Virus record (IMG/VR): IMGVR_UViG_3300035696_000007
Span: 108,010-172,009 of that record
DNA length: 64,000 nt
Direction: 5' to 3' (one strand)
From: a virus
Below the pieces are notes generated by a model. It had not been told where the DNA came from. It made no database searches and was given only the letters and a program-made list of their open reading frames with translations. Positions 45,794 through 56,764 of the stretch are shown here, piece after piece. Numbering within the stretch: position 1 is the first letter of the stretch; every line of letters begins with the position of its first letter. The translations under genes and the position numbers were made by a program.

Positions 45794-45888
45794 TGGCGGA
45801 GGCGTGCGGTTCCGCCCCGCGCCGGGCTTGACCTCGGTCCCGGGTTAGCAACCCGGTCGGACTTCTGGATGTCCTGCTTACTGCCTCC
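45794..45888 (-). tRNA. tRNA-Ser(GCT), atypical D region
   Basis: CCGGG-UUGCUAA-CCCGG; long variable arm; GCCA end. Confidence 0.75.
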
Positions 45889-45894
45889 GAAAGA

Positions 45895-45981
45895 TGGCGG
45901 AAGGCGATGGAGTTGCGCCATTGTCCTTGCGGGCACTGCGGTTTTCGAGACCGTTCGAGGAGACTACCCTCAGCGCCTTCC
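45895..45981 (-). tRNA. tRNA-Ser(CGA)
   Basis: loop CUCGAAA; GCCA. Confidence 0.85.
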
Positions 45982-46029
45982 GAAAATGGTATTATTTAGG
46001 CTTATCACACTAGATGAGTTACTAATAGA

Positions 46030-46117
46030 TGGCGGAGGGCGGAGATCTCGCGTCCCAGCGGCTCGCGCCGCCCCATGAGCTTCCAACTCAGGCCGACCCT
46101 CGGCCGGTTCACCCTCC
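46030..46117 (-). tRNA. tRNA-Ser(GGA)
   Basis: loop UUGGAAG; GCCA. Confidence 0.8.
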
Positions 46118-46400
46118 GAAAAGGAAATCGTTGACAAAACCGCGCCGGGAACAATCGGTGGTCGCGGGGATGTTTACGAAATCATGGTGGCCCGGCAGCT
46201 GGCTCGTGCGCGTCTCGGCCCGGAAGAAGGTCGTGCGCAGCTTCCAGTGCCTGACCTTCGACGACGCGAGGCTGGAGGCCTCCAAGGCCGTGAACGCCCG
46301 GCGCCTGCGCAGGCACCCGCTGCCGACGGCCGTCACCGTGGCGCTGATCGAGGGGCCGGGCCGGACGAGCCCGGAGATGCCCCTCTTCAGCGGCGGAAAG

Positions 46401-46476
46401 TGGTCCCCCCGCCCGGATTCGCGCCGGGATCTGCGCCTTAGGACGACGCGGCCCTGTCTAGTTGGACGACGGGGAG
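46401..46476 (-). tRNA. tRNA-Arg(CCT)
   Basis: loop GUCCUAA. Confidence 0.85.
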
Positions 46477-46477
46477 A

Positions 46478-46553
46478 TGGTAGGGGCGGTGGGACTCCCA
46501 CCCACACTATGCCGGGTTCGTAGCCCGGGTGACTAATAATTGCCGACGCCCCC
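46478..46553 (-). tRNA. tRNA-Arg(ACG)
   Basis: loop CUACGAA. Confidence 0.85.
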
Positions 46554-46577
46554 AAGATTGAAAAAGGTAGTTACGGC

Positions 46578-47000
46578 ATGAACAAGAGCCGACGGGTGAT
46601 CAGCCAGCTGACGGAAGCCGGGCCGGACCAGGGACAGAAGCCCGACGCCCTCGCGGCACTGGTGGCCTTCGCCAAAGAGGTGGTCGAGGCGTTCGAGGAG
46701 CACGAGTCCGGCGACCTCAACGACATCCCGGCGGACATCGTCATCGAGCGCGGCCGGGCCGCGCTGAAGCTGGCCGGCGCGGACGTGTCCAGCCTGCAGA
46801 AGTACAAGGTCGAGCAGCTCTTCGGCGGCGACTGGGGCGACCCGCAGTGGGAGGAGAACGAACACCCCATGCGCTTCGACACCGAGGAGGAGGCCTGGGT
46901 GGAGGTCGACGAGTTCCTCGCCGACGCGGCGGCCGCCGCGGAGGCCGGGCACATGGCGGCGGGGTTCAGCCGGGACGAGTTCCGGGTCGTCCCCGCCTGA
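46578..47000 (+). CDS. acidic hypothetical protein (SRRVISQLTE N-terminus)
   Basis: TAGTTA-N4-ATG; antisense to the tRNA array. Confidence 0.7.
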   Translation: MNKSRRVISQLTEAGPDQGQKPDALAALVAFAKEVVEAFEEHESGDLNDIPADIVIERGRAALKLAGADVSSLQKYKVEQLFGGDWGDPQWEENEHPMRFDTEEEAWVEVDEFLADAAAAAEAGHMAAGFSRDEFRVVPA

Positions 47001-47003
47001 GAG

Positions 47004-47079
47004 TGGACCCCGCGGCGGGATTCGCACCCGCACCACCGGCCTTAGAACGACCGGGCGCTGTCTGTTACACCACGCGGGG
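47004..47079 (-). tRNA. tRNA-Arg(TCT)
   Basis: loop GUUCUAA. Confidence 0.85.
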
Positions 47080-47095
47080 AAGGGGTACTTAGGCC

Positions 47096-47332
47096 ATGAA
47101 GAGCGCCGTCGAGAGGCTGCTGGAGGACGACCGGCAACCGTGGAGCCACGAGAACACGGTCAACGCCATCGTCGGCTCGTTCGTCGGCTTCGACTTGGAC
47201 GCCAGCGTCGCCAGGCTGCGCGTCCTCCTGGCCAAGGTGCCCGACCCGCTGCTGCGCCAGGTCTACGACGCGATGCACGCGGGCGAGGAGGACACCCTCG
47301 CGAGGGGCCCCTACCGGTTCACCGACAAGTGA
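47096..47332 (+). CDS. hypothetical protein (MKSAVERLLE)
   Basis: TACTTA-N4-ATG. Confidence 0.65.
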   Translation: MKSAVERLLEDDRQPWSHENTVNAIVGSFVGFDLDASVARLRVLLAKVPDPLLRQVYDAMHAGEEDTLARGPYRFTDK

Positions 47333-47333
47333 G

Positions 47334-47407
47334 TGGTCGCCCCGCCGGGAATCCCACCCGGGACGCGGCCTTCGGAGGGCCGCATGATATGGCTTCACCA
47401 CGGGGCG
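47334..47407 (-). tRNA. tRNA-Arg(CCG)
   Basis: loop CUCCGAA. Confidence 0.85.
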
Positions 47408-47411
47408 AAAT

Positions 47412-55445: not shown

Positions 55446-55510
55446 GGCGTCCTCCTAGTTTTGGGTTTTAGACTGCCCGATCCGGCGTCGTGCCGGGCCG
55501 GGAGGAGAGA

Positions 55511-55580
55511 TGGGGAGGAAATCGGCCACGGGTTTGTTTTCCTATAACCAGGGAGAAGTAGCCGCGACCTCACTGCCCCA
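55511..55580 (-). ncRNA. minimal Y-RNA-like element
   Basis: GGGGCAGUGA..GGCUACUUC..AAACCCG..GAUUUCCUCCCC. Confidence 0.7.
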
Positions 55581-55597
55581 AGATGTTCGAAAGTGAT

Positions 55598-55697
55598 GCG
55601 CCGGGAGGAAATCGCAGGCGGTGTTTTCTGGTGGGCCTTTCGGCCCGTCCATTTTGTGGTTGGAGTAGAAGTAACCGCATTGCTCACTGCCCAGCAC
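55598..55697 (-). ncRNA. Y-RNA-like element
   Basis: GGGCAGUGA..GGUUACUUC..AACACCG..GAUUUCCUCCC. Confidence 0.7.
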
Positions 55698-55710
55698 ACG
55701 AAGGTGGCCA

Positions 55711-55778
55711 CAGCAGGAGAAAACCGCCGACGGGTTTGTTCATGATGTTAGAAGTAACCGTAAGCTCACTGCCTGCTG
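55711..55778 (-). ncRNA. minimal Y-RNA-like element
   Basis: CAGCAGGCAGUGA..GGUUACUUC..AAACCCG..GGUUUUCUCCUGCUG. Confidence 0.7.
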
Positions 55779-55787
55779 CGATGAAAG

Positions 55788-55864
55788 TGGTACCCCGTGA
55801 GGGACGTGCGCCCTCCCTGCCTGGTTGGAAGCCAGGAGTGCTCGGCTGTTGACACCAACGGGGC
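55788..55864 (-). tRNA. tRNA-Gly(TCC)
   Basis: loop CUUCCAA. Confidence 0.85.
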
Positions 55865-56046
55865 GAGAAAGTTTTGGAAGATGGCTGCCGTGCCCGTGAG
55901 CACTCCCCATGGCGGTAACGTACCCGGGTGTCCCCGCCAAGCGTGCCACCGTTCGGGCCGGCGCAAGTCTCGATCAGCGGCGCGCGGGGGCTGTAGACCC
56001 CCGCAGACCTCGGTGAGGCGCGCCGTCACGCCGGCCTTATCCAAAT

Positions 56047-56122
56047 TGGTGGACCGGATGGGGATCGCACCCACCGCACGCTCCTTGCGAAAGAGCATCG
56101 CCTCTGAGGTACATGCCGGCCC
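56047..56122 (-). tRNA. tRNA-Ala(CGC)
   Basis: loop UUCGCAA; G3:U70. Confidence 0.85.
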
Positions 56123-56240
56123 GGAAGATAGTTTTGGGGCTTTTACCCCTTCCCGTCGAACTCTCGGGTGCCACTGGGGCCCCGTGGAGGGAAGCGGCCA
56201 GCGCGACGACGCCGCTATTGGGTCCCGTCGCTGGCTAAAG

Positions 56241-56315
56241 TGGAGAGGCGTGCTGGAGTCGCACCAGCGCATAGGAGTTTTGCGGACTCCGGCCTTGCTG
56301 CTTGGCTAACGCCTC
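56241..56315 (-). tRNA. tRNA-Cys(GCA)
   Basis: loop CCGCAAA; U73. Confidence 0.85.
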
Positions 56316-56592
56316 AACGGAAGAGCTGCCTGAGGGCCTGGGCGGCGAGGCGGGCCCGGGTGGGCTCGTCGATGTCGCCGGTGACCACGTCGCCGCCGTC
56401 GGTCGTGACCGCGTCGATGTCGGCGTACCAGCCGGGCTCGTTGCCGAGCGAGCCGGGCGCGCCCTCGTTGTAGGCGCACGTGGCGTCCACGACGACGGGC
56501 ACGTCGTCCTCGCCCCGCAGCGTCACGAAGGCGTCGAACCGGACGGTCTTGGATTCGCCTAGGAGCTGCTCAAGGACGGCGCGGGCTTTCAC
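56314..56592 (-). CDS. hypothetical protein (ARAVLEQLLGE)
   Basis: TAGTTA-N4-GTG. Confidence 0.65.
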   Translation of the reverse strand: MKARAVLEQLLGESKTVRFDAFVTLRGEDDVPVVVDATCAYNEGAPGSLGNEPGWYADIDAVTTDGGDVVTGDIDEPTRARLAAQALRQLFR

Positions 56593-56607
56593 GGCCTAAC
56601 TACAGGT

Positions 56608-56683
56608 TGGTGGCTCCCGCGGGATTTCCGCCCGCAACCTACCGCTTAAAAGGCGGCAGCTCTTGATGTTGAGCTAGGGAGCC
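56608..56683 (-). tRNA. tRNA-Lys(TTT)
   Basis: loop CUUUUAA. Confidence 0.9.
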
Positions 56684-56689
56684 GAAAAG

Positions 56690-56764
56690 TGGTGCGCCGA
56701 GCGGGTGCTGGCCCCGCGGCCTCCGCCTTGGCAAGGCGGCGTTCTGCTGTTGAACTACCGGCGC
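56690..56764 (-). tRNA. tRNA-Gly(GCC)
   Basis: loop UUGCCAA. Confidence 0.85.

Follow-up and report, generated by a model that had tools for sequence, protein, structure and literature searches.

The window analyzed here is a stretch of 64,000 nucleotides (positions 108,010 to 172,009 of the IMG/VR record IMGVR_UViG_3300035696_000007) that forms the final 64 kb of a 172-kb virus contig, of 67% GC and estimated to be 76% complete. Its minus strand carries, between positions 45794 and 56764, an array of 40 tRNA genes in which G18 and U55, the residues that join D-loop and T-loop at the elbow of the molecule, are replaced almost throughout by A18 and G55. Very probably, these genes encode functional tRNAs with a compensated alternative elbow. 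As a whole, the data are best explained by working tRNAs built on this elbow, with immunity to nucleases as its likeliest value and with a younger layer of C33 and C54 changes, an explanation to which we give a probability of roughly 0.55.

The elbow of the array tRNAs

The genes were identified with a custom cloverleaf scanner anchored at the 3' end, which requires paired acceptor, T, anticodon, and D stems (in a relaxed version, the acceptor and T stems and the CCA suffice). It detected 40 CCA-ended cloverleaf tRNAs, covering all 20 amino acids, the same number as in an earlier sequence-only reading of this DNA. ARAGORN with default settings called 21 of them and missed 19, and the Rfam tRNA model found 24–25, all on the minus strand, and missed 15–16; the gathering threshold of RF00005 (29 bits) was reached by 24 genes, with scores of 34.6–60.3 bits, the remainder being lost at the filters.

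Position 55 is a G in 38 of the 40 genes and in none of 76 canonical phage tRNA controls (p=1e-28), the exceptions being tRNA-Gly(GCC), with C55, and an initiator-like tRNA-Met (53056–53133), with UUCGA. The first five bases of the T-loop read UGCGA, UGCAA, CGCGA, CGCAA, UGGGA, CGGAA, or CGAAA in 33 genes, all of which fit the consensus YGNRA; the other T-loops comprise three with G54 and G58, one with A54/U58, two with C58, and the canonical UUCGA. C54 is present in 12 genes. The array does not show the U54-U55-C56/G18-G19 combination of RF00005, and A18 was read in 27 of the 32 tRNAs parsed at that position. The earlier reading had described a near-universal lack of the T-loop UUC, mostly through a change of U55 to G, and these counts, with UUCGA in one tRNA only, bear it out. 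Its wording of a loss of invariant residues does not hold, because it had overlooked a compensating A18 that makes G55 one side of a matched tertiary-pair swap.

In textbooks, G18, pseudouridine 55 (psi55), and U33 count as near-invariant residues of tRNA, and canonically G18 of the D-loop inserts between T-loop bases 57 and 58 and contacts psi55. The D-loops of the array read ..CAGC.. or ..UAGU.., not the usual ..UGGU.., which corresponds to a change of G18 to A18 with G19 kept. When this phage, the canonical controls, and five further trait arrays were pooled, G55 occurred with A18 in 143 tRNAs and U55 with G18 in 50, with six mixed cases (Fisher p=1.5e-39, a value that ignores relatedness); for the co-variation of A18 with G55 the count is 143 against 3. 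The same rule is followed within the single genomes G004, G001, and G002, presented below, in which the few U55 tRNAs carry GG. Positions 19 and 56 also co-vary: the T-loops with G56 (Arg-CCG, Arg-ACG, Glu-UUC, and Lys-UUU) have U19, as does the loop with A56, and in a relative A19 goes with U56. The 54:58 pair is found as U:A, C:A, A:U, and G:G.

These features recall the T-loops found outside tRNA, which follow YGNRA (UGNRA in 88.7%, CGNRA in 10.9%), in which a C-A pair is nearly as good as a U-A pair and an adenosine almost always intercalates between loop positions 4 and 5, tRNA being a special case with UUCRA and G18 (bioRxiv 10.1101/2022.12.26.521914). The change of partner to A18, the co-variation at 19:56 and 54:58, and the fit to YGNRA thus argue for a compensated elbow rather than for decay. 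To judge from the genes, the phage tRNAs have shifted from the tRNA-specific to the generic form of the T-loop motif: a generic Y-G-N-R-A T-loop with G55 would take A18, an adenosine being this loop type's usual partner, as its intercalating base, and the outer G19:C56 face, which the ribosome, RNase P, and T-boxes recognize (PMC4810234), is kept or gives way to a co-varying U19:G56 or U19:A56 pair. In that case the L-shape and decoding would be preserved while U54-U55 is gone, leaving no psi55, no 2'-O-methylguanosine 18 (Gm18), often no 5-methyluridine 54 (m5U54), and no UUC for the enzymes that depend on it. Psi55 is made by TruB, Gm18 by TrmH, and m5U54 by TrmA, and their main role is to stabilize the elbow (PMC7912444); given this established enzymology and the residues A18, G55, and C54, psi55 and Gm18, as well as m5U54 in the C54 genes, cannot be made.

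Like the generic T-loop module of FMN and cobalamin riboswitches, rRNA, and RNase P, the array loops have UGNRA or CGNRA with G at position 2, C-A as an alternative pair, and an adenosine available; unlike it, they sit in a tRNA, their position 3 still forms a Watson–Crick pair with D-loop residue 19, and the intercalation of A18 is predicted from sequence. With the canonical bacterial or phage elongator tRNA (RF00005) they share the cloverleaf with its 7-bp acceptor, the anticodon arm, type I and type II forms, identity elements, the 3' CCA, G19:C56, and the setting in a phage array; they depart from it by A18/G55 in place of G18/U55 in 38/40, by C54 in 12 and C33 in 12, by the impossibility of psi55 and Gm18, and by the scores of many genes, which fall below the thresholds of standard tools. 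Our literature search found no paper describing a systematic, compensated A18/G55 elbow.

In the 34 tRNAs parsed by the scanner, 565 of 578 stem positions are paired, a count that has to be read with the reservation that the scanner itself selects for paired stems. When 26 pairs of tRNAs with the same anticodon were compared between this phage and G004, its closest complete relative, 218 of 442 stem positions were identical, 188 differed by two-sided compensatory changes, 18 by one-sided changes, and 18 were unpaired. Identity elements are in place (G3:U70 in both tRNA-Ala, G-1:C73 in tRNA-His, and U73 in tRNA-Cys), so that the earlier claim of intact stems and identity elements, hence of no decay, stands. 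Under simple wobble rules, the anticodon set covers 99.1% of the 43,658 codons in 169 predicted open reading frames (ORFs) and leaves only five rare NNA codons unread; the tRNAs with C33 account for 31% of all codons, among them every Val, Cys, and Tyr codon and the main codons for Ile. The tRNA set therefore looks like a working one, tuned to the phage, and not like debris, and its members are predicted to be charged and to decode. That they are decaying or otherwise non-functional pseudogenes is hardly credible: the 15–19 of 40 genes missed by standard tools, a few odd T-loops (GCCAG and CGCAC), and the D-arm of tRNA-Ala(CGC) might suggest it, but the near-perfect stem pairing with abundant compensatory change, the intact identity elements, the CCA in all genes, the co-varying tertiary pairs, and the fit of the anticodon set to codon usage all speak against it.

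Distribution and origin of the A18/G55 elbow

We scanned IMG/VR and bacterial genomes with the commonest G55 T-arm 17-mer; what follows refers to the matches listed, which are unusable as a count of G55 tRNAs. Two relatives of this phage share the trait. G004 (complete, 225 kb, 52% GC), whose portal is 56% identical, has G55 in 29 of 32 tRNAs, all with U33 and U54, and G005 (a fragment of 51% GC, reached via its Ro60 gene), with Ro60 and portal proteins 52% and 56% identical, respectively, has it in 10 of 11. G55 also predominates in G001 (complete, 275 kb, 65% GC; 33/35), G002 (160 kb; 26/31), and G003 (a 29-kb fragment; 22/22). The portals of G001 and G002 are merely 21–24% identical to that of this phage, and the 29-kb G003 fragment yielded no portal match. 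The trait is thus present in two relatives of 51–52% GC and in at least three unrelated large phages, that is, in at least six phage genomes ranging from 51% to 67% GC, and by these comparisons A18/G55 is an inherited lineage trait common to several phage lineages. Among the arrays that carry it, the present one stands out by its near-total conversion (38/40), its added C33/C54 layer, and the presence of both an RNase P-like RNA devoid of a specificity domain and a Ro60 gene.

At least four bacterial contigs with A18/G55 arrays (L132, L156, L237, and L241) were found, all of them binned as Verrucomicrobiota metagenome-assembled genomes (MAGs): Opitutus, Prosthecobacter, another Verrucomicrobiota bacterium, and an 'Akkermansia' contig at 65% GC. 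This binning may be a weak hint of the host or else an artifact. No portal homolog was found in the four MAGs. Canonical GGTTCRA T-arms are dispersed in them, two- to seven-fold above the control pattern; variant T-arms are clustered on one contig in the two MAGs with matches listed, and their overall count in the four either matches the control or is higher by roughly as many as the array contains. Hence, the T-arms of the MAGs' own tRNAs read canonical. This counts against the view that the phage mirrors host tRNAs bearing the same deviations, as do the range of 51–67% GC among phages with the trait, which are expected to differ in host, and the coexistence of canonical-elbow RNAs in the same phage genomes. 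Such mirroring is very improbable, even though a recurrent CCA-less A18/G55 tRNA-Tyr, maybe a host tRNA at an attachment site, speaks for it. This tRNA is a single type II tRNA-Tyr(GUA) found on viral contigs of about 62% GC (L020, L030, L032, L038, L042, L056, L071, L086, L089, L119, and L125). It may correspond to the host tRNA at a prophage attachment site, and in that case some bacterium would have a chromosomal A18/G55 tRNA-Tyr.

The bacterial-genome matches listed for the 17-mer are mostly 5' ends of group II introns, cobalamin riboswitches, and tmRNA-like ends, which indicates that the UGCGA T-loop is common outside tRNA. In many phyla, the sequence GYGGGUGCGAAUCCCRC is part of cobalamin riboswitches and of group II introns, in the latter about 45 nt into the intron and after its GUGCG start (L127–L246); some Vicinamibacterales and Rhodobacterales MAGs have several intron copies. 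Likewise, 3' ends resembling those of transfer-messenger RNA (tmRNA; ..GGAC + T-arm + ..UCCACCA) with a UGCGAAU T-loop are seen on many low-GC viral contigs (e.g., L015–L019 and L021–L024) and on L171, L216, and L219. The tmRNAs within the G001 and G002 arrays are canonical (GUUCGAUUC).

Megablast of GenBank phages with the array as query gave no match. Distant blastn matches were limited to single tRNAs of cultured phages with the same amino acid, the five identifiable annotated hits all agreeing by amino acid, and the cultured phages with the most similar tRNAs (RcXuper, Pokken, and SPA01) have canonical elbows. With the anticodon masked, the best match among 82 canonical phage tRNAs was a tRNA for the same amino acid in 12 of 31 cases, against 2.0 expected and a maximum of 9 in 2000 label shuffles. 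This excess of same-amino-acid matches indicates that the set does not stem from duplication of one A18/G55 ancestor; the swap would instead have occurred, or arrived by short-patch conversion, in many isoacceptor lineages in parallel. The adjacent tRNA-Met (49710–49786) and tRNA-Thr (49633–49708) have identical T-arms, which suggests local homogenization or gene conversion between neighboring tRNA genes. LR745206, a 635-kb uncultured phage with the closest GenBank Ro60, was considered as a relative and discarded, its tRNAs being canonical, and it then served as a control. Among 39 tRNAs of LR745206.1 (L250–L252), the T-loop is AUCGUUA, AUCGUAA, or AUCAAAA in eight; an inverted A54:U58 pair, with U55 and GG kept, is seen in seven of the eight, and one Val-GAC has C33.

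Other RNAs and genes of the array

Between tRNA-Gln(UUG) and tRNA-Lys(CUU) lies a 224-nt element in which CR-I-, CR-IV-, and CR-V-like motifs are readable. Its copy in this array (49873–50096) gave no direct hit with the covariance model of RNase P RNA (RF00010), and its identity comes from the homolog in the G004 array (nhmmer E 4.6e-20; G004:C1:56335-56548 = L247:2835-3050, minus strand), which aligns with RF00010 end to end (model positions 1–367; E 9e-11 to 1.8e-14) at 38–47 bits, short of the 100-bit gathering threshold. Through this homolog, the core of the catalytic domain is recognized (P1–P4, CR-I, CR-IV, and CR-V); in the G004 copy a stretch of about 32 nt stands in for about 140 model positions of the specificity domain (P7–P14), and P18 is missing. 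Minimal RNase P RNAs without a specificity domain are known, such as those of the Pyrobaculum type. The element is preceded by a CUUUCG leader, the same as in the tRNA spacers; the spacers between tRNAs are only 1–7 nt long and pyrimidine-rich (ACUUC, AUCUC, CUUC, AUUU, and UUU). A phage-encoded RNase P RNA was described in no paper that we found.

Because the missing domain is the part of RNase P that docks on the tRNA elbow (PMC4810234), the co-occurrence of the element with the swap is striking, but it is not obligatory. Rfam RNase P models gave no hit in the other trait arrays G001 (complete), G002, G003, L132, and L237, and a search with a 17-nt motif for further copies of the mini RNase P RNA recovered that of G004 only, along with four chance hits without RNase P signal. 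A dependence of the elbow swap on the phage RNase P was rejected on the ground that other trait arrays lack an Rfam RNase P. Elbow-less metazoan mitochondrial tRNAs, with their co-evolved RNase P and L1 region (PMC4810234), likewise combine a non-canonical elbow with an RNase P devoid of the part that reads the elbow; in the phage tRNAs, by contrast, the elbow is complete and retains the outer pair, and the mini RNase P is restricted to the clade of this phage.

The array also contains a gene for a Ro60/Rsr protein of 484 amino acids with TROVE and vWA domains, relatives of which occur in many phages. Downstream of it are three CCA-ended tRNA-like RNAs of 126–134 nt and a CCA-ended minihelix (about 53500–53571, minus strand). 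A neighboring rsr (Ro60) gene and a tRNA-like acceptor/T-arm module with CCA, here found in the three RNAs, are traits of YrlA-type RNAs. The Rfam YrlA model (RF02553) had no hit at E≤10 in 51790–53520, nor at E≤5 in 45000–58000; weak YrlA hits were seen in two other trait arrays (L132:3448-3513 and L248:10494-10558). The sequence-only reading had assigned a canonical UUCGA to three of the Y-RNA mimics; it is in fact kept by two of the long RNAs (51805–51933 and 53360–53493) and by the initiator-like tRNA-Met, and the third long RNA (53230–53355) has CCAAACA. Its proposal that these mimics display a host-like epitope, and with it the idea of a decoy, finds no support; Y-RNA-type tRNA mimics normally carry a canonical T-arm anyway.

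The phage itself encodes T4-like structural proteins (a Gp20-type portal, a Gp23-type capsid protein, a prohead protease, and gp25) and also a family A DNA polymerase, RecA, and DnaB. Its portal is about 25% identical to jumbo-phage portals; it has no close cultured relative, and the cultured relatives of its portal and Ro60 proteins are remote only. Plus-strand ORFs are scattered through the minus-strand array, namely an FkbM-type methyltransferase (50192–50827) and small ORFs without assignment, and an HNH endonuclease gene is at 45106–45936. The rest of the contig has genes for GroES, a radical SAM/SPASM protein, and a 2H-phosphoesterase of the 2'-5' RNA ligase superfamily, as well as a response-regulator domain and an intein. 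Pfam was surveyed over the whole contig (25 of 30 families listed, 100 ORFs), and 20 ORFs in or near the array were scanned singly. With Pfam and PHROGs, the ORFs in and around the array yielded no tRNA nuclease, ligase, or modification enzyme, only the HNH endonuclease, two methyltransferase-domain proteins, and Ro60. Far from the array, at contig positions 63447–63523 (minus strand), there is a CCA-ended tRNA of amber-suppressor type (anticodon CUA; called tRNA-Pyl by ARAGORN) with a fully canonical elbow (D-loop GG, GUUCGAC). The features of the array are given in table 1.

Table 1. RNA and protein genes of the array, with elbow residues and the base at position 33 (coordinates within the window; strand in brackets)
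Feature	Position (strand)	Characteristics
tRNA-Ser(GCU)	45794..45888 (-)	CCA encoded; T-loop GGCGGAA (G54/G58 variant, G55); U33
tRNA-Ser(CGA)	45895..45981 (-)	T-loop CGCAACU (C54, G55); U33
tRNA-Ser(GGA)	46030..46117 (-)	T-loop CGCGAGA (C54, G55); U33
tRNA-Arg(CCU)	46401..46476 (-)	T-loop CGCGAAU; A18 G19; U33
tRNA-Arg(ACG)	46478..46553 (-)	T-loop UGGGAGU (G55, G56); D-loop U replaces G19; U33
tRNA-Arg(UCU)	47004..47079 (-)	T-loop UGCGAAU; A18 G19; U33
tRNA-Arg(CCG)	47334..47407 (-)	T-loop UGGGAUU (G56) paired with U19, D-loop AGCCAUA; U33
tRNA-His(GUG)	47412..47488 (-)	Encoded G-1, C73; T-loop UGCAAGC; A18 G19; U33
tRNA-Thr(UGU)	47490..47564 (-)	T-loop CGCAAAU; U33
tRNA-Thr(CGU)	48394..48469 (-)	T-loop UGCGACU; A18 G19; C33
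tRNA(CAU), Ile2 or Met	48475..48549 (-)	T-loop CGAAACC (G55, A56); U19 in D-loop AAUCUCA; C33
tRNA-Leu(UAA), type II	48554..48639 (-)	T-loop UGCGAUU; A18 G19; C33
tRNA-Leu(CAA), type II	48645..48728 (-)	T-loop UGCAACC; C33
tRNA-Glu(CUC)	48734..48810 (-)	T-loop UGCAACU; U33
tRNA-Glu(UUC)	48818..48893 (-)	T-loop UGGGAAU (G56); U19 in D-loop AGCAUCCCA; C33
tRNA-Leu(CAG)	48897..48981 (-)	T-loop UGCGAGU; U33
tRNA-Leu(GAG)	49258..49342 (-)	T-loop UGCGACU; U33
tRNA-Thr(GGU)	49633..49708 (-)	T-loop CGCAAAU; T-arm same as adjacent tRNA-Met; U33
tRNA-Met(CAU), elongator type	49710..49786 (-)	T-loop CGCAAAU; U33
tRNA-Lys(CUU)	49794..49872 (-)	T-loop UGCAACU; C33
RNase P RNA-like element	49873..50096 (-)	Catalytic domain only, without specificity domain and P18; within array
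tRNA-Gln(UUG)	50097..50171 (-)	T-loop CGCGAAU; A18 G19; C33
tRNA-Ala(GGC)	50831..50906 (-)	G3:U70; T-loop UGCGAAU; D-loop AGCCAGCA; U33
tRNA-Gln(CUG)	51355..51429 (-)	T-loop AGCGUAG (A54/U58 swapped, G55); U33
tRNA-Pro(CGG)	51472..51548 (-)	T-loop UGCGAAU; D-loop AGCCUAGUA; U33
tRNA-Val(GAC)	51557..51632 (-)	T-loop UGCGAGU; C33
tRNA-Pro(GGG)	51640..51716 (-)	T-loop UGCGAAU; U33
tRNA-Asn(GUU)	51722..51796 (-)	T-loop UGCGAGU; U33
tRNA-like RNA, 129 nt, CCA-ended	51805..51933 (-)	Canonical elbow (D-loop GG, T-loop UUCGACU); long insert replaces anticodon arm
tRNA-Val(CAC)	52075..52151 (-)	T-loop UGCGAGU; C33
tRNA-Asp(GUC)	52516..52592 (-)	T-loop GGCAGCA (G54/G58 variant, G55); U33
tRNA-Pro(UGG)	52600..52676 (-)	T-loop CGCGCAU; U33
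Initiator-like tRNA-Met(CAU)	53056..53133 (-)	Weak 1:72 pair, anticodon stem GGG/CCC; sole canonical UUCGA among the 40
tRNA-Phe(GAA)	53153..53229 (-)	T-loop UGCAACG; U33
tRNA-like RNA, 126 nt, CCA-ended	53230..53355 (-)	T-loop CCAAACA
tRNA-like RNA, 134 nt, CCA-ended	53360..53493 (-)	Canonical T-loop UUCGAAU
tRNA-Trp(CCA)	53561..53634 (-)	T-loop UGCGACU; U33
tRNA-Ile(GAU)	53636..53710 (-)	T-loop CGCGACA; A18 G19; C33
tRNA-Tyr(GUA), type II	53846..53932 (-)	T-loop UGCGAGU; C33
Ro60/Rsr-like protein, TROVE + vWA domains	53991..55445 (-)	Gene inside array; Pfam TROVE E 2.2e-19
tRNA-Gly(UCC)	55788..55864 (-)	T-loop CGCACGU; U33
tRNA-Ala(CGC)	56047..56122 (-)	G3:U70; T-loop UGCGAUC; D-arm irregular; U33
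tRNA-Cys(GCA)	56241..56315 (-)	U73; T-loop UGCGACU; C33
tRNA-Lys(UUU)	56608..56683 (-)	T-loop CGGAAAU (G56); U19 in D-loop AACAUCAA; U33
tRNA-Gly(GCC)	56690..56764 (-)	T-loop GCCAGCA (G54, C55, G58); U33

Possible value of the elbow and of C33

The likeliest selective value of A18/G55 would be to make the nearly complete tRNA pool of the phage immune to nucleases directed at the T-loop, whether these act in host defense or in bacterial competition, although we rate its chances at somewhat below even. Nucleases of this kind are known. Cash, a Schlafen protein associated with type III CRISPR, cuts most Escherichia coli tRNAs 5' of U55, single mutations of U54 or U55 abolish cleavage, and its authors left the targeting of phage tRNAs as an open question (PMC13462974); the CdiA-CT toxin of Burkholderia pseudomallei E479 cuts the T-loop between the conserved T and psi (PMC9086364). 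Both are putative adversaries, not relatives, of the feature described here, and neither is linked to this phage or its host. By analogy, a tRNA pool devoid of U54-U55 and able to read 99% of codons would ride out the attack of a T-loop nuclease.

Several observations weigh against such immunity. UUC is kept by the initiator-like tRNA, both here and in G004, by the amber-suppressor tRNA at 63447–63523, by the tmRNAs of the G001 and G002 arrays, and in tRNA-like RNAs adjoining rsr; a blanket escape from T-loop nucleases fits poorly with this, because the initiator, suppressor, and tmRNA that keep UUC would stay vulnerable. Moreover, persistence of the swap is by itself no proof of selection, because its reversal needs two substitutions and the state is thus self-maintaining, and identical neighboring T-arms hint at a spread of the loop by gene conversion without selection. 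These points lead to the alternative that A18/G55 is a neutral, frozen second solution for the elbow, reached by compensated substitution and propagated by duplication and patchy conversion, with C33 and C54 as near-neutral drift and no adaptive role for any of them. YGNRA loops with an adenosine are indeed common and stable in other RNAs, the same 17-mer T-arm recurs in cobalamin riboswitches, group II introns, and tmRNA-like 3' ends, single genomes contain both canonical and swapped tRNAs, and the loops of this phage show a general shift from T to C; together with the identical T-arms, these facts give the neutral explanation some substance. We nevertheless consider it unlikely, because cellular tRNAs, just two substitutions off, almost never use the swap, because its accumulation is specific to accessory phage arrays (85–100% of genes, in at least six phage genomes and at least three lineages), and because the retained isoacceptor-specific ancestry implies many parallel conversions.

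Two adaptive alternatives to nuclease immunity concern the modification and the recognition of the tRNAs. A swapped elbow that is stable without psi55, m5U54, and Gm18 might allow the bulk of late tRNAs to skip TruB, TrmA, and TrmH and the decay of under-modified tRNAs. These modifications mainly stabilize the elbow (PMC7912444) and are impossible on A18/G55 (and, for m5U54, on C54) tRNAs, generic YGNRA T-loops fold unmodified, and the encoded CCA and very short spacers suggest minimal processing needs; however, canonical arrays of similar size exist (LR745206, with 61 tRNAs, and RcXuper) and modification capacity is not obviously limiting, which makes this explanation improbable. Even less probable is that the elbow is a label by which a phage activity, such as a nuclease removing host tRNAs or the RNase P RNA without its elbow-reading specificity domain, would tell self from non-self. 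A set that reads 99.1% of codons, the RNase P RNA-like element shared by this array and that of G004, and the 2H-phosphoesterase and Ro60 proteins, which suggest functions at RNA ends and in RNA quality, speak for such a label. Against it, the trait occurs without an RNase P hit in the five arrays named above, no phage tRNA nuclease is found among the 25 Pfam families listed or the 20 ORFs near the array, and the phage's own initiator-like tRNA is canonical and would also be hit.

The other deviation, C at position 33, affects 12 of the 40 tRNAs, exactly those named by the sequence-only reading: Thr-CGU, the CAU tRNA at 48475–48549, Leu-UAA, Leu-CAA, Glu-UUC, Lys-CUU, Gln-UUG, Val-GAC, Val-CAC, Ile-GAU, Tyr, and Cys. 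It is found in 7 of the 76 canonical controls (p=0.007), in none of the 32 tRNAs of G004 (p=0.0007), and in 9 of 165 tRNAs of the other trait arrays; C54 is likewise absent from G004 (0/32) and from G004, G001, and G002 taken together (0/98). As far as these arrays tell, C33 and C54 make up a second set of changes, later than the elbow swap and specific to this phage of 67% GC. The tRNA loops of the phage are generally T-poor and C-rich relative to G004, T making up 9% against 22% of D-loop positions, 6% against 28% of position 59, and 75% against 97% of position 60; U8, where C cannot work, is at 91% against 94%. There is a somewhat better than even chance that C33 and C54 derive mostly from strong T-to-C mutation pressure at positions where any pyrimidine suffices. 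GC pressure alone is no explanation, however, because G001, at 65% GC, is nearly free of both. Pure drift is also countered by the recurrence of C33 across unrelated phages, low-GC cultured ones included: in Ile-GAU it is found in three of the six trait arrays and in the cultured phages RcXuper, Pokken, and SPA01, and it recurs in Val-GAC and Leu-GAG.

Some isoacceptors, notably Ile-GAU, may gain an escape from nucleases through C33. Other data run counter to a wider protective role. C33 is present in only 5 of the 16 tRNAs with C34, so that the 'UC' site has not been removed systematically, and in published mutagenesis U33C leaves cleavage by gamma-toxin unchanged and colicin E5 requires merely a pyrimidine at 33. 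General protection from anticodon nucleases was rejected for these two enzymes on that basis, and any protection by C33 must concern others. C33 belongs to the same class of anticodon-loop variation as that of phage tRNAs previously proposed or found to resist host tRNA nucleases (van den Berg et al. 2023, PMC10264068; T5 tRNATyr against the retron PtuAB, PMC11555353; T5 tRNALys against PARIS, PMC11464382), which, like those of the array, are accessory tRNAs that differ at sites read by nucleases. Unlike in those tRNAs, the main change here is in the elbow, affects nearly every tRNA, is compensated at a second site, and has no known cognate nuclease.

In its most far-reaching form, the preferred explanation would have A18/G55 as an evolved immunity device that hides the tRNA pool from T-loop nucleases of the Schlafen/Cash and CdiA-CT E479 types and frees it from the host's elbow-modifying enzymes, would join it with the RNase P ribozyme, Ro60, and the tRNA-like RNAs in a self-contained module for translation supply and RNA rescue, and would see in C33 a further escape in, for example, Ile-GAU; this extended version we regard as doubtful. 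At the level of the elbow itself, these phages provide whole, apparently functional tRNA sets without G18 and psi55, with more than 140 examples from six or more phage genomes. Because standard tRNA finders miss many genes of this kind, phage tRNA repertoires are underestimated. The A18/G55 tRNAs might be of use as nuclease-proof or modification-independent scaffolds. They also make testable a question raised in the literature, whether phage tRNAs escape defense nucleases that cut the T-loop, and they constitute a natural experiment on the purpose of the elbow contact and of its modifications.

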